47,149 nt of DNA from Escherichia phage JeanPiccard. The notes under the pieces are model-generated. The model saw only the letters and a program-made list of their open reading frames with translations. It did no database searches and was not told where the DNA came from. The stretch is taken from the sequence record MZ501080, one strand, 5' to 3'. The translations under genes were made by a program, and so were the position numbers. Shown one piece after another: positions 10,256-41,230 of the stretch; position 1 is the stretch's first letter; the number at the start of each line of letters is the position of its first letter.

Positions 10256-13231
10256 ATGGCAACAAATGAATTAGCCGGAATCACGCTAGCCGTAGACGTA
10301 TCGCAGGTAGATAGGGGAACGCAATCCCTACAGAAGTTCAGGCAGGCTAACCAACAGGCCGCTTCCGGGATTAGTGAATTCATAAACGCTGAGCAGGTTG
10401 CTAAAAACCAGGCGAGAGATACAGCTCGCGCACTTGCTGAGCAACAGGCATCACTGGCTAAGCTGCAAACTGCGATTGATCCAACTGCGGCAAAGTTCCG
10501 TAAGCTGCAAGAGGCGGCCGTAGGTCTTGATAAGGCGTTCGCTGCTGGCGTAGTTCCTGATGAGGAATTTTTCCGATTAGGTGAGGCTCTTGAAACGCAG
10601 AATGCAAAACTTGCGCGTTCACGCGCAGCTTTAACCGAGGAGGGGAGGGCGGCGGCTCAAGCGGCAAAGGAGAAAGCGGCAGCAAAAGCAGCAGCGGATA
10701 GATTTATCGCATCACTTGAGCGACAAGCTCAAGCTGCGACGCTGACTCGTGAGGAGTACTTAAAGCTACAGGCTGCACAGCTTGGTGTTAGTTCTCAGGC
10801 TGCGCCTATTATTGACAGAATCGCTGAGGCTTCAGAGCGAGCAAATGTTCAATTAGCAAACCAAAGCAAGGCTTTTCAGAAGTCCGGGCTAAGTGCCGGG
10901 CAATACAAGAACGCCATTAGCCAACTGCCAGCACAGATTACAGATATTGGAACATCACTTGCTGGTGGCATTCCGATTTGGCTTATTGCAATTCAGCAGG
11001 GCGGACAAATTAAGGATGCATTCGGAGGTATTGGTAACACATTTAGATTCGCGCTGGCTGCACTAAACCATTTTAATGTTGCTGTTGGCGTTTTGGGAGG
11101 CGCACTCGTCGCTCTCGGTATTGGCGCGGCTCAGGCTGAAAGTGAATTCAGGGCATTGAACTCTGCCATTGCATTCTCAAACAACTCGACAATCACTTCA
11201 ATCTCGCAAATTAGACAGTTGGTTAGCTCTGTTTCTGACGCTACCGGCGCCACCAGAGGACTGGTAACCAGCATCGCAACAAGCCTTGTTGAGCAAGGAA
11301 ACCTTACGCTAACGCAGATTGATAAGATTACTAAATCAACAGCAAGATGGGCGCAGTTGACAGGTAAGGATGCAAAGGAGATTACTGGTTACTACAACCA
11401 GATTGCAAGCGACCCAATCCAGGGTTTAGTTGACTTGGATAAGCGCTTTAACTTCCTCACACAGGGGCAGCTGACGACAATCGAAAACCTGAGAAAGACA
11501 AAGGGGGAGGTCGAGGCCGTTACCGCCGCGATTGATATTTTCAGCAAGTCGCAGGAAGCCAACCTTAACGACATTGCAGCTCAATTAACTCCACTTGAGT
11601 TAGCATGGAATGACTTCAAGAAGTACATCTCTGATGTCTGGGATGCAATTAGCCGTAGAACACTAGGTGCTTTAAACCTGTTTGTTGACGTAATAGCAGG
11701 AACAATTGAGCAAATCAGGGTCTTCCTTAACCAGGGTGACGTTCTGATTGGTGAATTCGTAATCAGCGCAACTCAGGCATTGCAGAACATACCTGGCCTT
11801 GATGGTGTTGGTGATGATGTTATCAAGGGGCAGCAGAAGATTATCGATGCCGCCAAGAAGCAAAACCTTGAGCTAGAGAAGTCCATCAGGGAGCGAGATG
11901 CCAGAATCAGAGAGGGAGAGCTTGGTTACGTTAATCGCAGAGAGAATCAGAATACCAATGAGCAATCAGGGACCGATGAGGAATTCGCAAAAAGGAAGAA
12001 GGCACTTCAGGATGAGCTTGACGCGATCAAGAAAAACAGGAAAGAGGAAAATGGGAGGGTTAATGAGCAAAGGGATTTAACAATAGGTTATGAATCTGGC
12101 GTTCTGGCACTTCAGGCTCAACTCAAGGTTCTTCAGGAAAATCGGGATATTGGCGCAGTAATAAGCAATGAGCGCAAGCAGTATCTTCAGGAGGAGGCTA
12201 AATTCAGGATCCTTGAGCAGAGGCAGCTTGATGGCTCGATTACCAAAGAGCAAGCGAGACTTATCGTTGAAAAGGACAAAGTTCTTGAGTTGGCCAAGCA
12301 GAAGGCTGAACTAGGTGATCAGATTGTTTTGCAGGAGCGCGCCAATAAGTTAGCTGAAGATAACCGCAAGAAGATTCTTCAGATTAACAATGAGGCAAAT
12401 AACATTGATTTAGGCGCTGGATTGTCATCTCGAGAGCAGCAGAGAGCCAAAGAGATTCAGGCCCTCCAGTCCAATCAGGTTAATGCTGGTGGCGCACTTG
12501 ATGACGTGGATTTTCAGCAACTCCTCGAAGCAAGACGCAACTTTTACGCTCAGGAGGATGCGCTACGTGAAAACTGGCTCGCTGGCGTGAATCAATCCTT
12601 TGCCAATTGGGCTGAGAGCGCTAAGGATGCATTCTCAATTGCTGGAAGTTTAACCACAACAGTCTTTGAGGGCATTACCGACCAGATTACAAACCTTGTA
12701 ACAACTGGCGAGACAAACTTCAGGGAGTTTACTGTAAGCATCCTTAAGCAGATTGCTAAGATTGCGGCTCAGCTTCTTGTTGTCAAGGCAATTGAGTCTA
12801 GCTTAAGTAGCTTCGGTGGCACTGGTGGCGCTATTGGTTCAATTGCCTCAGCTATAGGTTTTGCTGGTGGCGGCTACACTGGTGATGGCGGGAAGTATCA
12901 GCCAGCAGGAACCGTACACCGCGGTGAGTTTGTATTCACAAAAGAAGCAACAAGCCGAATTGGTGTTAAGAACCTTTACGCGCTAATGAAGGGATACGCA
13001 AACGGTGGCGCTGTAGGTGGTCCATCTGGTTATGCTAATGGCGGTTTGGTTTCTGGTGGGTCAGATGTTAATGTTAGTGGCATCACCGTTAACGTTAATG
13101 GTGGCGTTGGTAGCGACCCAGAACAGGCCAAGGCATTGCAGAGTGGCGTTAAGGCTATCGTTGCGGAAGAAATTGCTCAGTCTTTCCAGCAGGGTGGAAA
13201 AGCGTATGCCTACCTGAGGGGCTTTAACTAA
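10256..13231 (+). CDS. tail tape measure protein
   Basis: 991 aa, Ala/Gln/Glu-rich coiled-coil composition, Gly-rich C-terminus; located after G/GT chaperones. Confidence 0.9.
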
Positions 13232-19701: not shown

Positions 19702-19706
19702 AATAA

Positions 19707-19725
19707 AAGCCCCGAAAGGGGCTTT
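19707..19725. terminator. bidirectional terminator between convergent J and minus-strand operon
   Basis: hairpin AAAGCCCCgaaaGGGGCTTT flanked by A-run and T-run. Confidence 0.6.
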
Positions 19726-19729
19726 GTCT

Positions 19730-20662
19730 TTAATACATGTCTGGAAGGTAAGGCAATGGAGTGGATATTGTTACGTCAGGTCTGTTTCCAATCTCATATC
19801 TTACAATCCTTGATCCAGTTCCCGATCGAACATAACCATTACTCATTACGATTCCTTTGTTTCTTAACTCCTTGTAAGCTGGAATTGCCCTGGTGTTAAA
19901 TCCGCATCTTAATATTGGGAAGTAGGATTCGCCAATATACTGATTGCTACCTGATAGGTTTATGAATCCAGAAACAACCAACGGCCTTGTAACGGTTGAT
20001 AAAGTGCAAACACCATTAGAGTTAAATATGTTCAATCCGGGTCCTGGTATTGGCGCAACCATCTGAAAAATAATCAAGTCCATAGTGACACTTCCAGGAG
20101 TGTCTCCAGTATCTTCAGTGTTTATGTTTGTGCATATCAGTTGATTGCTCCCGTTGTATTCAACCGAGACGCCGGAGTTATTCCACTTTCCAAATGGTAT
20201 CCCATAAATTGGCAGCGTGTATGTGTTGGTGAAAGATATCCTCTGAGCAAACTTGCACACCAACAACCTGTCAGTGGTGGTTATCGAAGTAAAATCTGTG
20301 CTATTGGCAACATAAATACCCTGACCAGTAGATGCTCTTAGTACCTCAACAACAGTACCAGAAAATTGAGTTATACGGTCAGAATATCCATTCTCATAGC
20401 CAATCGATATTGTTCCGCTTGATGCTGTTGATGAGAATCCATTTATGTAGTAAACCTCAACGCCCCTATCAAGTTCGAATGAGTAGGCACCATTATTAGG
20501 GATTAGGAACCTTGACGCTCCTTCATTACCCTGGATTGAAAAAGTTTTGCTAAATCCACCACTAGAAACGTTGAAGTTGCCAGCAAAGTTCAAGGCACGC
20601 ATCCCTGCGGTTATTGTCATTGGCTTTCTTCCGTCATTGAGGTCTATATAAATACCTTGAGC
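19730..20662 (-). CDS. hypothetical beta-rich protein co-transcribed with lipoprotein (possible receptor-binding or exclusion partner)
   Basis: 310 aa from ATG 20662 (AAGGAG RBS, TAATG overlap with upstream gene); Gly/Ser/Thr/Asn-rich. Confidence 0.45.
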   Translation of the reverse strand, partial: AQGIYIDLNDGRKPMTITAGMRALNFAGNFNVSSGGFSKTFSIQGNEGASRFLIPNNGAYSFELDRGVEVYYINGFSSTASSGTISIGYENGYSDRITQFSGTVVEVLRASTGQGIYVANSTDFTSITTTDRLLVCKFAQRISFTNTYTLPIYGIPFGKWNNSGVSVEYNGSNQLICTNINTEDTGDTPGSVTMDLIIFQMVAPIPGPGLNIFNSNGVCTLSTVTRPLVVSGFINLSGSNQYIGESYFPILRCGFNTRAIPAYKELRNKGIVMSNGYVRSGTGSRIVRYEIGNRPDVTISTPLPYLPDMY

Positions 20663-20664
20663 CA

Positions 20665-20895
20665 TTAATTCCACTCCTTAGAACCATAATCACGAACGGA
20701 CCCACTGGAGCCTTTAATTCCATCGTAGCGAATATCAATTTCACCAGCCGGAACAATTACGCCGCTTTTCCATTTAGCTACGCACACTCCGTTTGAGGAT
20801 GTAGCGCACCAACCATCTGGGCGAGGACCAGATGAGCAGCCTACCATCATGATTGCTGCTGCGGAGATGATTACTGATTTGATGAAGTTATTCAT
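20665..20895 (-). CDS. lipoprotein, Cor-like superinfection exclusion candidate
   Basis: signal peptide [19 protein letters not shown] followed by Cys (lipobox MVGC); about 76 aa; adjacent to tail genes. Confidence 0.55.
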
Positions 20896-20960
20896 TTTTA
20901 AGTCCTTATTAAGTTTTCTCGTTTCGATGTGGTAATGATAACTCATCCCTGCGGATTGTC

Positions 20961-20978
20961 TTTAGCAATTCGTGCTAT
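20961..20978 (-). promoter_or_regulatory. dyad motif (minus orientation, copy d) overlapping methyltransferase stop codon
   Basis: TTTAGCAATTCGTGCTAT is the reverse complement of ATAGCACGAATTGCTAAA. Confidence 0.4.
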
Positions 20979-21651
20979 TTGCAATGAAAACCGCCCTTGC
21001 GAATCCTCTCGGTGTAAGACTGCGGACTACCTTCGTTTTCTTACTCTTACCGCCTAGCTTCTTGTATTGGTCTGAGAATCCGTCATTAACAGGCACGGGA
21101 ATAGCATCAGGCCATTTAAACCCATTGCCAGACCAAATACATGTCTTCTTAGGATATGCGTCGCGAGGCTTTATTAGGTCGCTAAAAAACGGGTGTAAAT
21201 CATCTTCCGGCAAATAGCCTCCGTATTCGTAAGGGTGGAAAGTGTTATCAGGCTTTCGCCAAAGTGATGAAAGTACGCTTATCGGGTTCTCAATCATGTA
21301 TGGCACTTGGTACTTATTAGCCAGGTTAAAGGCAACTTTACACGCTTCAGCAGCTTCAATTTGGAAATTGGGGTTAGCAAGGCGCTTGCGCTCAAAGTGT
21401 CTTGACCCGCTCACCGCTAAATCCGTACAGGGCGGGAATGCCAAAATGAAATCAGGCTTCACATTAAAATCGAAGTCAGCATCTATCCATGCGTTAACAT
21501 AGGTGATGTTGTGATGCTCAACCTTTGCATTTAAGTCACCGTAGCTCCCATGGTCAGAATCATCAAAGTTGAAACAGTAGCAAGTGTGACCAGCTTCAGC
21601 CCAATCTTTCACCGCAAGACCAGAGCCATCAAATAAAGACCAGATAACCAT
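20962..21651 (-). CDS. DNA C5-cytosine methyltransferase (short Dcm-like)
   Basis: motif I-like LFDGSG, PC motif FPPCTDLAVSG, ENV-like MIENPIS. Confidence 0.65.
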   Translation of the reverse strand: MVIWSLFDGSGLAVKDWAEAGHTCYCFNFDDSDHGSYGDLNAKVEHHNITYVNAWIDADFDFNVKPDFILAFPPCTDLAVSGSRHFERKRLANPNFQIEAAEACKVAFNLANKYQVPYMIENPISVLSSLWRKPDNTFHPYEYGGYLPEDDLHPFFSDLIKPRDAYPKKTCIWSGNGFKWPDAIPVPVNDGFSDQYKKLGGKSKKTKVVRSLTPRGFARAVFIANSTNC

Positions 21652-22034
21652 TTTACAATCCTCTCTCGTTGTTTGTGCGACTAACTATACCAGGTTTTGC
21701 GTCTGAGTTTTAGCTATTCGTGCTATTGCATACACGTAACAGATGTAACTTGATGTATACAATCTAATCCGCGGAAAATGATATACGCCAAGTTACGCAT
21801 GGTTACGCTATATTTACATTAAAATATCTATATATATCAACCATTTACTCTTATTATTATTATTATATATATTACTGTGTATATCATGTAACTACCTCTA
21901 TAGAGTGTTCCGGTTGCAATTTTAATATCATGTGGATTTATACAGTGTTGCACGGTGCTATACCAATGCACCCTCAGCAATAAATGATATACACGATATA
22001 CACACTAGTTACATTGAGCTATAGCTGATCTGAG
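21652..22034. promoter_or_regulatory. AT-rich divergent control region 1 (iteron-like repeats; candidate early promoters or origin)
   Basis: no ORFs; (ATT)n tract, GATATACAC tandem repeat, GTAAC/GTTAC and GTATAC repeats, TACACGTAAC; about 75 bp homologous to 40887..40960. Confidence 0.45.
21708..21726 (-). promoter_or_regulatory. dyad motif (minus orientation, copy e) upstream of methyltransferase gene
   Basis: TTTAGCTATTCGTGCTAT; followed on minus strand by TATAGT and leader before ATG 21651. Confidence 0.4.
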
Positions 22035-22379
22035 GTGCCAGAAAACGTAACTAGTGGCAATGCATACATGGAATTACAAGAATTCACACGTAAACTTAAT
22101 AAATTGATAGGCACAAACGATTGGATTCCAGCAAGCCACGCGGATATAGTTAACCCATCGAAAGCAAGCAACCAAATAGATACGAAAATGGGAAAGAAAA
22201 TAGATAGATACTCAGCTCACACCGTAATACTACCCAGCTATGCTCCGGTTTTTATTGGTGTAACTTACGAAGTGGCTCTTAGATTATGCGAGTCATCATA
22301 TGGTAAAGACTGGAAAAACAAATCAATTAGAATAGAGAAGACAACTAGAGAACATATCAAAATCATCGCGGGGGTATAA
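22035..22379 (+). CDS. hypothetical protein (start uncertain)
   Basis: 114-aa ORF with GTG start and no clear RBS; in-frame ATG at 22068. Confidence 0.35.
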   Translation: MPENVTSGNAYMELQEFTRKLNKLIGTNDWIPASHADIVNPSKASNQIDTKMGKKIDRYSAHTVILPSYAPVFIGVTYEVALRLCESSYGKDWKNKSIRIEKTTREHIKIIAGV

Positions 22380-22380
22380 A

Positions 22381-22575
22381 ATGACTTACTACATTATCAA
22401 AGAGAAAAACAACGCGTTGTTCGGAGACTGCTACTTTGGCGGCCCAGCTGGATACACCACAGATAAGAACGAGGCCGACAGATTCGAGACTAAAGAAGAG
22501 GCTAGAGATGTACTGACCGGGTACTTCACTGAAGAAGATTTGAAGTCTGTTAAAGTTGTTAAAGTGAAGGAATAG
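22381..22575 (+). CDS. hypothetical protein
   Basis: 64 aa ORF tightly packed before nuclease gene. Confidence 0.45.
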   Translation: MTYYIIKEKNNALFGDCYFGGPAGYTTDKNEADRFETKEEARDVLTGYFTEEDLKSVKVVKVKE

Positions 22576-22578
22576 AAT

Positions 22579-23544
22579 ATGAGCTTTAAAGTTTTTACGA
22601 GAGAGGAACTAAGCAACGAGGCTTACCACGCTGAAACTGACCACATCTCAGGCTCCTCACTTGTTGAGATTATCCAGGGTTCACCAGCCAAGTGGAAGTT
22701 CAAGCAGCGCAATGGCGATAGCAAGGCTCTTAAATTCGGCACGCTGAGTCACACTTACATCCTGGAAGGTGACATGTTTGATAAAGAATACCTTCGCGCA
22801 ACCGACCTTGACGCGATTGAAGGCTTAATTACAAGCCAGACCGGATTAGCAGCAGCACTTAAAAAAGTCGGTGTGGCTGGTACGTCAGGGAAGGGCTATA
22901 GCGAGCTAGTAGAGATGATGTATCGTTCAGGTGAGGATTGGCCTGTTAAATGGCTAATTGAGCAGCAGGAGAGCGCTCAGGCGCTTTTGGAGGGTAAGCA
23001 GCTAGTTAGCGCAGCAGACTATGACAAAGTGGTGGCAATGCGTGAAGTTCTTTGCAATATCCCGGCATACAATGCAATCGTGAATAGCGACACCGCACAG
23101 AAAGAGCTATCAATCTTCGGTGAGATTCTCGGTGTCGGAGTAAAGATTCGAATCGACCATGTTGACGTTGTTGATGGAGTGGTCCGCATTACAGATTATA
23201 AAACCACAGCGGACGCAAGCCCTGAAGGATTCGGTAAGTCTGCATTCTCTCACGGATACCTTGCAAAAATGGCTCTTCAGCGCGATCTGCTTGTGAAGGC
23301 GTTCAACGAGAAGCGAAAGGTTGTTGTGGGTTTGCTGGCGCAGGAGAAGGTGGAGCCATACTTACCAATGCTGTATACCCTAACTGACGAGCAGCTACGA
23401 ATTGGCCGACTCCAGTATCTTGAGGCGCTAGCAAATTACAAGAAGTGCAGGGAGCTAGATATCTGGCCTGGCTACTCGAATGGCATTACAGAGCAAGAAT
23501 TGATGATTCCTGAGTGGGCAATTAAACAATATAGAGAGATATAA
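22579..23544 (+). CDS. PD-(D/E)XK exonuclease (RecE/RecB-family-like)
   Basis: IDHVDVVDG ... ITDYK motif pattern (D..D/E.K); co-located with annealing protein and SSB genes. Confidence 0.65.
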   Translation: MSFKVFTREELSNEAYHAETDHISGSSLVEIIQGSPAKWKFKQRNGDSKALKFGTLSHTYILEGDMFDKEYLRATDLDAIEGLITSQTGLAAALKKVGVAGTSGKGYSELVEMMYRSGEDWPVKWLIEQQESAQALLEGKQLVSAADYDKVVAMREVLCNIPAYNAIVNSDTAQKELSIFGEILGVGVKIRIDHVDVVDGVVRITDYKTTADASPEGFGKSAFSHGYLAKMALQRDLLVKAFNEKRKVVVGLLAQEKVEPYLPMLYTLTDEQLRIGRLQYLEALANYKKCRELDIWPGYSNGITEQELMIPEWAIKQYREI

Positions 23545-23545
23545 A

Positions 23546-24010
23546 ATGAACAAAGATTGCTGGCAGACTCCTTTAGAGTTATTTAAACCAATAGATGAAA
23601 AATACAACTTCGAGGTTGACGTATGTGCCAGTCCAGAGAACGCGCTTTGTGAATACTTCTGGACCGTAGATGATGACTGCTTGCAACAGGATTGGGGTGA
23701 TGATGGCGGTTTCGTTTGGTGTAATCCACCATATAGCAATCCATTACCATTTGTTGAAAAGTGCCAGCAATACGGATATGCAGTCATGCTATTGAATCAG
23801 GATACGTCAACAAAATGGGCTAAGATAGTCTTTGAAAAAGCATCAAAGGTTATACTTTTATCAGACAGGGTTAGATTTATAAATCCAGTAACACTTGAGG
23901 TTGGCAAGTCAAACCCAAAATGCCAGATGATTGTTGTTTTCGACAAGAGCAGTAATACTGGTGTTGATATACGCTGGTGCTCAATAAAAGAAATTCATAA
24001 GCACATATAA
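23546..24010 (+). CDS. dam: phage-type DNA N6-adenine methyltransferase (Dam-like)
   Basis: WQTP N-terminus and catalytic NPPY motif (WCNPPYS); about 154 aa, typical of the small phage Dam family. Confidence 0.8.
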   Translation: MNKDCWQTPLELFKPIDEKYNFEVDVCASPENALCEYFWTVDDDCLQQDWGDDGGFVWCNPPYSNPLPFVEKCQQYGYAVMLLNQDTSTKWAKIVFEKASKVILLSDRVRFINPVTLEVGKSNPKCQMIVVFDKSSNTGVDIRWCSIKEIHKHI

Positions 24011-24011
24011 A

Positions 24012-24029
24012 TAGCACTTTTTGTTAAAA
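24012..24029 (+). promoter_or_regulatory. dyad motif TAGCACttttTGTTAAAA (family copy f)
   Basis: directly after dam stop; followed by TATAGTTAAAG. Confidence 0.4.
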
Positions 24030-28073: not shown

Positions 28074-28097
28074 TGTGTAAAGTCTCCATTTGTAAAA

Positions 28098-28115
28098 TAG
28101 CACGATTTGCTAAAG
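28098..28115 (+). promoter_or_regulatory. dyad motif TAGCACgattTGCTAAAG (family copy g)
   Basis: located between tail fiber start and primase terminator, plus orientation. Confidence 0.3.
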
Positions 28116-29142: not shown

Positions 29143-29616
29143 TTACTCTTTAGCTTTTCGTGCTGCTTCGTTGGCGGCCTTGATCTTGCGCCATGATCGA
29201 CACTCTGGCTTGGTGGCTAATTCAGCCTCAGTAACAACGCGCAGCATGTGACGTTTTTTGCATCGTAGTGTAAGCGGTTTTCCGTTACCGTCGAATTGCA
29301 GGTCCGGTCGACAGAATGTAGCGCGAAAACCTTCCCCAGTTCGTTTGTAGTAGTTATGCGACAGTTGAGCGCCACGTGCAGAAATCATACCACGCTTAAA
29401 CCATTCTTCCACGGCCTGAGGAGTTACCTTTAGCTGCTTTGCGATATTCGCCTTTGTGCCGAAGAAATCAAGTAGCATCTCAAGCCGCGCACGTAGCCCT
29501 GCCCTTACTTCATCTTTTAAAACGTAGTAGCCTGAAGGTCGTTTGCGCTTCTTTTTGTCTTCAGTGCGGACGGTTCCGTTATTCCCGTTAATGGTTCGCT
29601 TGTCTACTGCATTCAT
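29143..29616 (-). CDS. HTH DNA-binding protein (putative transcriptional regulator)
   Basis: helix-turn-helix-like segment ANIAKQLKVTPQAVEEWFKRG; basic termini. Confidence 0.55.
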   Translation of the reverse strand: MNAVDKRTINGNNGTVRTEDKKKRKRPSGYYVLKDEVRAGLRARLEMLLDFFGTKANIAKQLKVTPQAVEEWFKRGMISARGAQLSHNYYKRTGEGFRATFCRPDLQFDGNGKPLTLRCKKRHMLRVVTEAELATKPECRSWRKIKAANEAARKAKE

Positions 29617-31713: not shown

Positions 31714-32133
31714 ATGAAAATTACAGATAAGGTTGATTACATTGAGTTTTACCCAGGCCCTGTTAATTCATGCCCTAAAGAGGATGACGAACAAATCTTT
31801 TGCTCTGATTGGGTTAAGTATAACTATCCAGACATGGTGTTTTTCCACTGCGTGAATGAGGGTAAGAAAACAATTGGACAAGCAAGAAAAGACCAGGCTA
31901 AGGGTTTATTGAAGGGCGTATCTGACTGCATGTTTCTGATACCTGAATCTATCCGAGGCAAATACCCTTTCGGAGCCATAGAGCTAAAGAGGGCAGGAAA
32001 AACACAGGCAAGCCCAGTCAGTGACGAACAGAAGTCCTTCCTGAAAAGCGTAAGAGAATCAGGCGGCTTCGCGGCTGTAGCCTATGGTCGCGAGGGTTTT
32101 CTGGCAGCATTCAAAGAAATGATTTCAAAATAG
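31714..32133 (+). CDS. VRR-NUC domain nuclease
   Basis: 139 aa; segment GAIELKRAGKTQASPVSDEQKSFLKSV typical of VRR-NUC proteins; coupled to helicase. Confidence 0.6.
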   Translation: MKITDKVDYIEFYPGPVNSCPKEDDEQIFCSDWVKYNYPDMVFFHCVNEGKKTIGQARKDQAKGLLKGVSDCMFLIPESIRGKYPFGAIELKRAGKTQASPVSDEQKSFLKSVRESGGFAAVAYGREGFLAAFKEMISK

Positions 32134-32148
32134 CACGAATTGCTAAAG
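32131..32148 (+). promoter_or_regulatory. dyad motif TAGCACGAATTGCTAAAG (family copy i); TAG is the VRR-NUC stop
   Basis: exact 17-mer TAGCACGAATTGCTAAA shared with copies j, p, q. Confidence 0.45.
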
Positions 32149-32211
32149 GTATTTCGCAGGGATGCGATATAGTTACCCCATCGAAACGAAACACTAAAAG
32201 AGAGAAACAAA

Positions 32212-32415
32212 ATGGCCACTATCTACACCACTAAGAAATACATTTCACGTAAAACTGGTTACGAGTATAACCTGGTTCTTGATGACTCGCTCGGCATGCT
32301 TCTCGCTGACGCTGAAGATGCTGAATACTGCTTTGAAGTTAGCTCGACTTACAAAGATGATTTAGAAACTGTTAAAAACGTATTCGGCGAAAAATTTGAT
32401 GAGGTGTCAGAATGA
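32212..32415 (+). CDS. hypothetical small acidic protein (paralog A)
   Basis: 67 aa; C-terminal 23 aa identical to paralog B (YKDDLETVKNVFGEKFDEVSE). Confidence 0.55.
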   Translation: MATIYTTKKYISRKTGYEYNLVLDDSLGMLLADAEDAEYCFEVSSTYKDDLETVKNVFGEKFDEVSE

Positions 32416-32453
32416 GAGTGGTAGTTGTAAACTGGAAAACTGGAGAGGATTCA
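32347..32453 (+). repeat. 107-bp direct repeat, copy 1
   Basis: differs at 3 positions from 32658..32764. Confidence 0.85.
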
Positions 32454-32459
32454 AAATAG
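32412..32459 (+). pseudogene. truncated 5' remnant (15 codons) of small ORF duplicated at 32723..32881
   Basis: MRVVVVNWKTGEDS then premature TAG supplied by the dyad motif. Confidence 0.5.
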
Positions 32460-32474
32460 CACGAATTGCTAAAC
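32457..32474 (+). promoter_or_regulatory. dyad motif TAGCACGAATTGCTAAAC (family copy j)
   Basis: sits exactly at the junction where the duplicated segment ends. Confidence 0.45.
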
Positions 32475-32531
32475 TATGACGCATGGAAGCGTGTATTATC
32501 AACTCATCGAAAAGAAACTAGGAGAGAAAAA

Positions 32532-32726
32532 ATGAATACTATCTATACTGCTAAATTCTACGAATCACGCAAAACCGGTTACCAGTATGAATTAGTAATT
32601 ACAGATGACGGTTATTTTCTTGATGATGGTGAGGGGTACTCATTCGAAGTTAGCCCAACCTACAAGGATGATTTAGAGACTGTTAAAAACGTATTCGGCG
32701 AAAAATTTGATGAGGTGTCAGAATGA
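32532..32726 (+). CDS. hypothetical small acidic protein (paralog B)
   Basis: 64 aa from ATG 32532 (GGAGAG RBS); paralog of 32212..32415. Confidence 0.55.
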   Translation: MNTIYTAKFYESRKTGYQYELVITDDGYFLDDGEGYSFEVSPTYKDDLETVKNVFGEKFDEVSE

Positions 32727-32764
32727 GAGTGGTAGTTGTAAACTGGAAAACTGGAGAGGATTCA
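32658..32764 (+). repeat. 107-bp direct repeat, copy 2
   Basis: near-identical to 32347..32453. Confidence 0.85.
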
Positions 32765-32881
32765 GAATTCTTCTTCAATACATTCTCGCAATACATTGAT
32801 AAGTATGTTTTCGTTATTGATGGTGAGTGTGAGGTTGTTGTTCCTATTAAGCTAATTGATGGATTGGGAGTATCAGGATAA
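32723..32881 (+). CDS. hypothetical small protein (full-length copy of truncated ORF)
   Basis: 52 aa; ATGA overlap upstream and TAATG overlap downstream. Confidence 0.45.
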   Translation: MRVVVVNWKTGEDSEFFFNTFSQYIDKYVFVIDGECEVVVPIKLIDGLGVSG

Positions 32882-40523: not shown

Positions 40524-41230
40524 TTATTTCTCCTTTCCTCTCGTTTCTAGGACTGAATCATAGCAACCAACCACTGATAGGTCATTAGCAAAAAGTGCTA
40601 TTCGTTAGATTTATGGATTGTTGCAGATATTGAAATTATTATCATGATTATTGCACATATAGCAATATTGCTTCAGATGCAATGATGTTTTTGATTGTTG
40701 CGGATTGAGCAATGAAGTGGTGGGGGAGTGAATGAAAGATGGATGGACTAACATACAAGTTGATTTTGACTCCCGATAACCTATCCTGTGGTATACACGT
40801 AACCGCCGTATACTCAGTGTCGTCACAAAAGTTAGTGGACACTAACCTACGTTTTTTACGCCAATATACACTCGATATACAATATAATATCTATATATAT
40901 CAACCTTTTACTTTATTATTATTATTATTATTATATATATGTATACCGTGTATACCGGTCATGGATGGAATAGTTGATATGTTCCGCGCAGATATTCTGA
41001 CACTTGTCAGAAAGGGATGACATTGTAGGAATAAAAAGGCACATATATAGGAAATATCCTCAAAAATCTGTACACAGTGGATACGGCAGGTTTACAACCA
41101 GTGCCGGAGCGGGCTTGAGAGGCAAAATGCGTATCCATGATAAAATATACTAAAATATACATTGACCGACACGTAAATAGGTGGCAATATAGCAATCACT
41201 GAAACGAAGTAAACCAAACGAGGTATTAAC
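40524..41230. promoter_or_regulatory. AT-rich divergent control region 2 (homologous to region 1)
   Basis: no credible ORFs; shares ATATCTATATATATCAACC(A/T)TTTACT(C/T)TTATTATTATT core, TACACGTAAC and GTATAC repeats with 21652..22034. Confidence 0.45.
40585..40601 (-). promoter_or_regulatory. dyad motif (minus orientation, copy o)
   Basis: TTAGCAAAAAGTGCTAT is the reverse complement of ATAGCACTTTTTGCTAA. Confidence 0.35.

Follow-up and report, generated by a model that had tools for sequence, protein, structure and literature searches.

The window analysed here is the whole of sequence record MZ501080, 47,149 nucleotides of Escherichia phage JeanPiccard, and corresponds to the complete genome of a T1-like siphovirus (Drexlerviridae, Braunvirinae). 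We show that a methyltransferase gene on its minus strand is an optional unit, with limits that coincide to the base with two directly oriented copies of a short family-wide repeat. A preliminary description, made from the sequence alone, had noticed the repeat copies at both ends of this gene; the observation is confirmed. It had read the gene as a horizontally shuffled, independently transcribed module of moron type providing anti-restriction modification, an interpretation that is partly supported.

A methyltransferase gene bounded by two direct copies of a family-wide repeat

The repeat, ATAGCACnnnTTGnTAAA, opens nearly every transcription unit in the window and lies about 20 nt upstream of a -10-like hexamer. 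A search with TAGCWATTCGTGCTAT allowing up to two mismatches returned 12 matches in the window, compared with 0.05 expected from shuffled sequences (none of 100 shuffles reached 12). With the looser published consensus about 20 copies are found, and 19 of 20 are co-oriented with the downstream gene. Read on the plus strand, the two copies that bracket the methyltransferase gene are TTTAGCAATTCGTGCTAT (20961-20978) and TTTAGCTATTCGTGCTAT (21709-21726), where they had been placed previously, with position 21708 being the additional A of ...TAAAA. Since both copies are on the minus strand, 748 bp apart, they are direct repeats and not inverted relative to each other as had been supposed; they are inverted only with respect to the plus-strand copies. 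The upstream copy differs at one position from the consensus published for phage TLS (aaATAGCACnnnTTGnTAAAA) and starts, at its 5' end, 75 nt before the ATG of the methyltransferase gene. The downstream copy agrees with it at all positions and has its 5' end 83 nt ahead of the ATG of the next gene, which encodes a lipoprotein. As noted earlier, the downstream copy overlaps the methyltransferase stop codon: the open reading frame (ORF) ends within it (GCA AAT AGC ACG AAT TGC TAA, that is A N S T N C stop, with the TAA at 20964-20962), and the copy encodes residues beyond the last invariant Asn of the protein, plus the stop. The ORF of a relative of the methyltransferase also stops inside a motif copy in 21 of the 26 motif-bearing IMG/VR loci, in two registers: at the TAG of ATAGCAC in 19 and, as in the window, at the TAA of GCTAAA in two.

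The closest records to the window are BEK3/BEK2 (approximately 86% identity across the 2.9-kb query region), together with AugustePiccard/Bas01. In vB_EcoS_FP (FP) and Rtp (Braunvirinae) and in AHP42 (Rogunavirinae) the methyltransferase is absent and one motif copy is located exactly at the junction. The two blocks of homology, which in the window run up to 20978/9 and resume from 21709, overlap on this single copy in FP (2764-2781 of locus L003) and in Rtp (2763-2780 of L005), and in AHP42 both blocks likewise meet on one copy (3351-3368 of L007). The flank upstream of the window's upstream copy is common to FP and Rtp (87-89% over 45 nt), and FP also has the A variant of the motif found in that copy, GAATAGCTAAA. 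The downstream flank in FP and Rtp (GACATTCCGCA...) is that of the window's downstream copy. BEK3 provides a second context for the insertion/deletion (indel). There, the methyltransferase unit has a Roi-like gene on one side and the lipoprotein promoter on the other; 12210I has the Roi-like (anti-repressor) gene followed by a single motif copy and then directly by the lipoprotein promoter, the junction being composed of the upstream flank of the BEK3 middle copy, the motif and the flank of the BEK3 downstream copy. The endpoints of the indel thus fall within the repeated promoter element in four comparisons (FP, Rtp, AHP42, and 12210I versus BEK3).

Their direct orientation means that the copies also delimit a 748-bp insertion/deletion exactly, and the single repeat at the same spot in relatives lacking the gene makes this an optional, swappable gene and not a new kind of element. 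The synteny of the relatives therefore bears out the suspected presence/absence of the gene between motif copies: it is missing from most close relatives, with breakpoints inside the copies. The description of a cassette bracketed by motifs holds in that the gene lies between the two copies; the downstream copy, on the other hand, is the promoter element of the next gene and not a cassette end as such. The motif, the annotation of the gene and shuffling at promoter repeats (in T4-like phages) are already known, and no single part is new. In the literature searched, we found no report of a base-resolved motif-to-motif indel in T1-like phages.

The locus carries different cargo in different phages: none in Rtp, FP and AHP42; the methyltransferase only in the window and A110b; the methyltransferase and the Roi-like gene, with or without two small genes, in BEK2/3 and Bas01; an anti-repressor/KilA-type gene without the methyltransferase in the 12210I group and IME253; and a 5'-truncated methyltransferase in MM01. 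Only three of the 84 matching records span the whole region and only five hold a copy of at least 89% identity (89-93%). The next-closest genes (70-73%, about 72%) belong to Kagunavirus/Jerseyvirus-type phages (Guernseyvirinae), in which a helicase gene adjoins and there is no motif, and other Drexlerviridae have alleles of 57-60% at a different locus. This greater proximity to Guernseyvirinae than to the alleles of other Drexlerviridae fits the horizontal acquisition that had been proposed.

Two of these records call for a comment. In MM01 (MK373793; 2463-2567 of L012) a 1.4-kb deletion joins the equivalents of window positions 21602 and 23002. Lost with it are the promoter and the initial 16 codons of the methyltransferase gene, the AT-rich region and, from the exonuclease VIII gene, the 5' half; both the methyltransferase and exonuclease VIII therefore appear to be dispensable in that isolate. 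MG065688 ('Campylobacter phage A110b', unverified) is a genome of Braunvirinae coliphage type with the methyltransferase architecture of the window, and its Campylobacter host label looks doubtful.

The best reading of the repeat, from its position and spacing, is that of an upstream element of family-specific promoters. In nearly all copies of the window, Rtp and BEK3 it is separated by 19-22 nt, mostly 20, from a -10 sequence of the form TATAnT, often TGn-extended. As the TTG of the motif is 22 nt from the -10, the motif is placed upstream of the -35 position; TTGCTA was considered as a -35 hexamer and rejected on account of this distance, with no alternative -10 at 17 nt. At the methyltransferase gene the upstream copy is followed by TATAGT and a leader, in the same layout as at the plus-strand copies, which agrees with the preliminary description. 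No -35 hexamer is found at normal spacing before this TATAGT, and a standard sigma-70 (-35/-10) scan makes no call at the unit formed by the motif, TGG-TATAGT and the leader. The view of the motif as a dyad is valid for the downstream copy, in which TAGCA-N5-TGCTA is perfect, but the upstream copy pairs at only four of five positions, most copies have an imperfect dyad, and the blocks conserved family-wide, ATAGCAC and TAAA(A), are asymmetric. In TLS, aaATAGCACnnnTTGnTAAAA was described in 2024 as a 21-nt direct repeat, oriented with transcription, approximately 76 nt before start codons and also present in T1, Rtp and Rogue1 (PMC11447400). The copies in the window share with it the motif, the orientation to genes and the distance (~76 nt) to start codons. 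Absent from that paper (PMC11447400) are the constant 20 nt between motif and -10, the spacer hairpins and the role as an indel boundary. Nothing usable on transcription starts of the T1 family, or on phage methylomes, was found in the literature searched.

The spacers that follow the motif fold better than random genomic segments (window mean -3.01 versus -1.09 kcal/mol, 0/500), as is also the case in Rtp and BEK3; the methyltransferase gene's own spacer has no hairpin (-0.8). Examples of spacer hairpins in the window are found at the copies at 13231, 20961, 24011, 32130, 33284, 39433 and 45209. Two types recur: NNCA-(N)GGA-TGNN beside the -10, giving a semi-conserved CAnGGATG, and a GC stem followed by a T-run, terminator-like within the promoter (39433 in the window; 37530, 39960 and 44154 in BEK3). 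It should also be noted that one copy (28097-28114, plus strand) opposes the flanking lateral tail fibre and primase genes, both on the minus strand; its -10, 22 nt away, is poor (CATAAA). Conserved in position in Rtp (33762) and BEK3 (29143), this copy might serve in regulation or as an antisense promoter. Between the primase and helicase genes, a conserved 157-residue helix-turn-helix protein (29143-29616, minus strand; homologue of Rtp52 and T1 gp23, 'transcriptional regulator') is, as a speculation, a candidate binder of the repeat.

The methyltransferase protein

Judging by PHROG 757, its catalytic motifs and its predicted fold, the 229-residue protein is an orphan, compact, DNMT3-like C5-cytosine DNA methyltransferase. 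The profile searches give a divided answer to its earlier naming as a Dcm-like enzyme. There is no Pfam hit at threshold (PF00145 with an E value of 0.013 and 15.3 bits compared with a cut-off of 22, over residues 3-90 only), NCBIfam returned nothing, and neither phmmer against the PDB nor a PDB profile search with a 47-member alignment gave a significant match. On the other hand, PHROG 757 ('DNA methyltransferase') matches the protein at 4e-84, and 25 of the 47 relatives match PF00145 at E<=1 (best 1.3e-6). Invariant or near-invariant in the alignment are F7xGxG11 (F7-D-G-S-G11), P73-P74-C75 and E121-N122-P123; K168, R210-S-L-T-P-R215 and N225 are also invariant. Motifs I (FxGxG), IV (the Pro-Cys nucleophile) and VI (the ENV-type Glu) are all present. 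The AlphaFold model (predicted local distance difference test score, pLDDT, 88.6) has an S-adenosylmethionine-dependent fold with the topology of C5-methyltransferases, and only C5 DNA methyltransferases are found at the top of both fold searches, with DNMT3A/3B (2.5e-6) followed by DIM2 and DNMT1 in Foldseek.

Along its entire length the protein shares 60% identity with Dcm of KarlJaspers/Bas06 (E 5e-99), and the homologue in AugustePiccard/Bas01 is already annotated as 'Dcm-like C5 cytosine methyltransferase'. The K42 variant of the KarlJaspers/Bas06 enzyme produces 5-methylcytosine (5mC) in the multicopy single-stranded DNA (msDNA) of retron Ec86, as measured by mass spectrometry coupled to liquid chromatography (LC-MS), and triggers that defence; the effect is lost on mutating a CCWGG site or residues C82/E128/K175/K176 (bioRxiv 10.1101/2023.08.16.553469). 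These residues correspond to C75/E121/K168/K169 in the window's protein, where all four are conserved. Because this 60%-identical homologue, which appears to target CCWGG, has been characterized, C5-methylation can be expected of the window's protein, which most likely acts on phage DNA at cytosine C5. A plausible benefit for the phage would be escape from some restriction enzymes.

The Bas06 enzyme resembles that of the window in belonging to the same family, in its catalytic Cys, Glu and Lys-Lys, in having DNMT3A/B as its best structural match and in the end of its ORF, also inside a motif copy. It differs in its location, since it lies at another locus, upstream of a helicase gene, where it closes a motif-to-motif unit of several genes. 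With the PF00145 enzymes E. coli Dcm, M.HhaI and M.HaeIII, the window's protein shares the fold, motifs I, IV and VI, the C-terminal R-x-L-T-P-R and the final Asn. It is nevertheless much shorter than M.HhaI and M.HaeIII (229 residues, compared with 320-330 for the aligned chains), with a very short target-recognition region, and it departs from canonical C5 methyltransferases in its sub-threshold PF00145 score, in the lack of a PDB sequence match and in its closest fold, the small DNMT3 catalytic domain.

A second methyltransferase gene is present in the window (154 residues, 23546-24010, plus strand; Pfam Dam PF05869, 3.4e-39). It begins right after the exonuclease stop codon, without a motif of its own, and a motif follows it at 24011-24028. 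This Dam gene is accessory: Rtp, BEK3 and FP do not have it, and in them a motif copy comes immediately after exonuclease VIII. The observed/expected (O/E) ratio of GATC is 0.30 in the window, a strong depletion, 0.35 in Rtp, 0.32 in BEK3 and 1.00 in KarlJaspers.

Proposed exchange at the repeat and competing explanations

Taken jointly, a methyltransferase unit of promoter plus gene, an indel bounded exactly by the motif, exchange through short homology and C5 methylation form the best explanation of the locus, and we hold it to be probable. The two motif copies would be the promoter elements of two successive genes. Recombination through short homology between motif or promoter copies would lead to loss or duplication within one genome, and to gain or replacement between co-infecting T1-like phages. 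Plausible agents would be the phage exonuclease VIII (22579-23544) and an Erf-type annealing protein encoded further downstream. The enzyme would provide escape from some restriction enzymes at the cost of triggering retron Ec86; this triggering by the homologue is a cost that could drive the patchy distribution of the gene. We may wonder whether the repeat is the exchange point of a family-wide cassette system of T1-like phages, in which modules of a promoter and a gene (methyltransferases, anti-repressor-like genes, small ORFs) would be excised, deleted, duplicated and exchanged among co-infecting phages, operating on ~20 nt via Erf and exonuclease VIII, with the methyltransferase tracking a trade-off between restriction escape and retron Ec86; this broader proposal is possible, but we regard it as doubtful.

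The locus offers a clean, base-resolved case of virulent T1-like phages gaining or losing counter-defence genes, in which the exchange unit is one promoter-plus-gene module bounded by a family-wide repeat. If the repeat does mediate exchange, this would explain the patchy methyltransferases that BASEL could not tie to restriction phenotypes, would carry shuffling of the PeSL (promoter-early stem-loop) type, known from T4-like myoviruses, over to a siphovirus family unrelated to them, and would provide a natural site, promoter included, at which phage engineers could insert genes. Moreover, with retron Ec86 being triggered by a homologue, the cost-benefit hypothesis can be tested directly.

Several observations weigh against exchange between repeat copies and would suit a simpler account, in which the motifs are mere promoters of the adjacent genes and illegitimate or microhomology-driven events are followed by selection for intact genes and promoters. 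Genome-wide, the ends of homology blocks relative to Rtp and BEK3 fall at motif copies in 9 of 78 cases, a ten-fold excess over a uniform null (0.9), but there is no excess over an intergenic-only null (8.2 expected; intergenic ends 5/36 versus a null fraction of 0.10, P = 0.31), and for this reason no claim is made here that the motif is a hot spot of recombination in general. Many genes stop at a motif copy or within it; as they are packed against the copies, viable gene-sized indels must end near one, and selection on illegitimate events could yield the same picture. The boundary between the window and BEK3 lies past the -10, outside the motif; the duplication at 32130-32790 has a junction (32413-32456) that does not pair motif with motif and instead uses microhomology at the motif edge; and the MM01 deletion (21602 to 23002) ignores the motifs. 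This account is nevertheless unlikely in our view, since each of the four comparisons resolves to one intact copy with flanks matching those of the two flanking copies, which is the signature of exchange within the repeat, and the same mechanism has experimental support for the PeSL repeats of T4-like phages (PMC2839356). The junction itself is compatible with gain or loss. The methyltransferase could be ancestral at this place in Braunvirinae and Rogunavirinae and have been lost repeatedly by deletion between direct repeats, in which case it would be no incoming module. Such a deletion, between 18-21-nt repeats 748 bp apart, gives precisely the single chimeric copy that is observed, and the gene occurs both in Braunvirinae (window, BEK2/3, Bas01, A110b) and in Rogunavirinae (MM01, where it is decaying). 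We find repeated loss somewhat unlikely, given that the allele is found in only five phage records and is absent from most of the 84 region-matching records, that the MM01 and window genes have 82.7% DNA identity compared with ~72-77% for the Rogunavirinae core, and that the gene is nearer to Guernseyvirinae (72%) than to other Drexlerviridae (57-60%).

As for the repeat, the TLS authors left its function open, between a stoperator, an enhancer site and a UP-like element (PMC11447400). Were it a repressor- or terminator-type element (stoperator or operator dyad) whose copies insulate or silence the gene, this would agree with the perfect 5-bp dyad of the downstream copy and with the hairpins, some of them terminator-like, that are often held by the spacers following the motif. 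Such a role is very improbable in view of the asymmetric conserved blocks, the dyad being imperfect in most copies, and of copies that are oriented with genes, at a fixed ~20 nt from a good -10 (often TGn-extended) and ~75 nt before start codons, and that precede units of every class. For the enzyme, the CCWGG O/E ratio (0.78-1.03) does not differ between gene-positive and gene-negative genomes, other C-containing sites show no informative difference between the same genomes, and in BASEL most Drexlerviridae are restriction-sensitive, with no simple relation between methyltransferase genes and restriction (PMC8594841). Its main role might be something other than restriction protection: another C5 modification (for example carboxymethyl from carboxy-S-adenosylmethionine, Cx-SAM), a part in expression or packaging, or near-neutral cargo. 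We consider this quite improbable, because the 60%-identical K42 Dcm makes 5mC as seen by LC-MS, with an effect abolished by mutation of a CCWGG site, because the four residues mutated in K42 Dcm are all conserved in the window's protein, and because the similarity of the latter to 8yf3 is no closer than to ordinary methyltransferases (16% identity).

The duplication mentioned above consists of tandem, diverged units of a promoter plus a small gene (32120-32790, plus strand); the motifs lie at 32130 and 32456, the ORFs encode ~64-67 residues, and a single unit (rtp55) is present in Rtp. In the first unit, the second motif is preceded by 42 nt from the 5' end of the downstream gene, which places the duplication junction at the GATTCA/GATTTCA microhomology. 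In addition, the 2,262-bp dcm deletion of a K42 escaper does not match the candidate motif pairs of KarlJaspers, used as a stand-in for K42, which span 1,867 and 2,543 bp.

The shuffling of PeSL repeats in T4-like phages, which includes mini-circle intermediates (Arbiol et al. 2010, PMC2839356; Comeau et al. 2014, PMC4122927), is the closest precedent for the exchange that we favour. In both cases many non-essential genes have in front of them a short repeat that contains a promoter, the insertions, deletions and replacements that separate close relatives have their ends in the repeats, and some of the window's motif copies combine, like PeSLs, a terminator-like hairpin with a putative promoter. 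The sequence and the phage family are unrelated, however. The window's repeat lies upstream of a -10 without a -35, and the methyltransferase gene's own copy has no stem-loop; furthermore, there is no genome-wide excess of breakpoints at the repeat over an intergenic null.

The leftward transcription unit and neighbouring features

The methyltransferase gene is the first of a leftward unit, followed by the lipoprotein and DUF6453 genes (Table 1). A terminator scan found no terminator between 20961 and the lipoprotein gene, so that the methyltransferase transcript should continue, and from the sequence it probably does run on, into the lipoprotein and DUF6453 genes. The proposed independent transcription may hold for the start of the unit, with its own motif, predicted -10 and leader, but not for its end, as the gene has no terminator of its own. 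Neither is there a GC anomaly: GC content is 0.43-0.46 in the methyltransferase gene, 0.40-0.465 in windows over the left-side genes and ~0.445 genome-wide.

Table 1. Features of the methyltransferase locus in the window, listed in the direction of the leftward unit
Feature	Position	Strand	Basis or remark
AT-rich (~30% GC) divergent intergenic region, boundary of leftward unit	21727..22034	.	Conserved in relatives from 21731 on
Upstream motif copy ATAGCACGAATAGCTAAAA	21708..21726	-	Upstream element of the methyltransferase gene's own putative promoter
TGG-TATAGT, extended -10-like	21684..21692	-	19 nt past motif; TATAGT at 21689-21684
32-nt leader with Shine-Dalgarno GAGAGG at 21665-21660, 8 nt before ATG	21652..21683	-	Direct reading
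Methyltransferase ORF, 229 aa, ATG at 21651	20962..21651	-	ORF list, PHROG 757
Downstream motif copy ATAGCACGAATTGCTAAA	20961..20978	-	Last codons and stop of the ORF; upstream promoter element of lipoprotein gene
TATCAT, -10-like of lipoprotein promoter	20935..20940	-	20 nt past downstream motif copy
Rtp45-type phage lipoprotein gene, 76 aa, ATG at 20895	20665..20895	-	Pfam PF24052
DUF6453 protein gene, Rtp44 homologue	19730..20674	-	Pfam PF20051, 4e-119; synteny; last gene of leftward unit
Bidirectional intrinsic-terminator-like hairpin	19706..19725	.	Sole terminator-like site downstream of methyltransferase gene

These two results bear on the assignment to the moron class, for which the comparison is with the extra genes of lambdoid prophages reportedly described by Juhala and by Hendrix and their co-workers in 2000. 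The methyltransferase gene has in common with morons that it is additional, with some relatives having it and others lacking it at that site, that it has a promoter-like element of its own, as read from the sequence, and that it is probably useful against host defences. In contrast, it lacks its own terminator (the only candidate being the hairpin beyond the DUF6453 gene, at 19706-19725) and any compositional difference, and in a virulent phage there is no expression from a repressed prophage. In the absence of both a terminator and unusual GC content, the classical moron reading is rejected, and the term fits only loosely.

The spacer of the lipoprotein promoter contains a small hairpin (ATCC-gcag-GGAT) inside an CAGGGATG element, and the conserved leader CATCGAAACGA comes with TATCAT ahead of the gene. 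The lipoprotein matches Pfam PF24052 at 4.7e-36 over residues 18-92 of a longer ORF. Rtp45 is annotated as 'putative phage lipoprotein' and the MM01 homologue as a superinfection exclusion protein; the Rtp45-type lipoprotein is probably a receptor-blocking superinfection-exclusion protein.

On the other side of the methyltransferase gene, the AT-rich intergenic region contains one of two copies of a 57-nt AT-rich repeat (79% identity) with ATATCTATATATATCAACC, at 21793-21849 and 40856-40912. There is one in each of the genome's two divergent intergenic regions, and they may belong to bidirectional early promoters or to origin regions. Further on, a 188-nt insertion (22191-22378, plus strand), seen in comparison with Rtp, BEK3, FP and 12210I, interrupts the rtp46 homologue and splits one PHROG 35664 gene into ORFs of 114 and 64 residues. 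A -10 and leader-like sequence, GATATAGTTAACCCATCGAAAGC, is found at 22143-22171 within the 114-residue ORF, ahead of an in-frame ATG at 22188.

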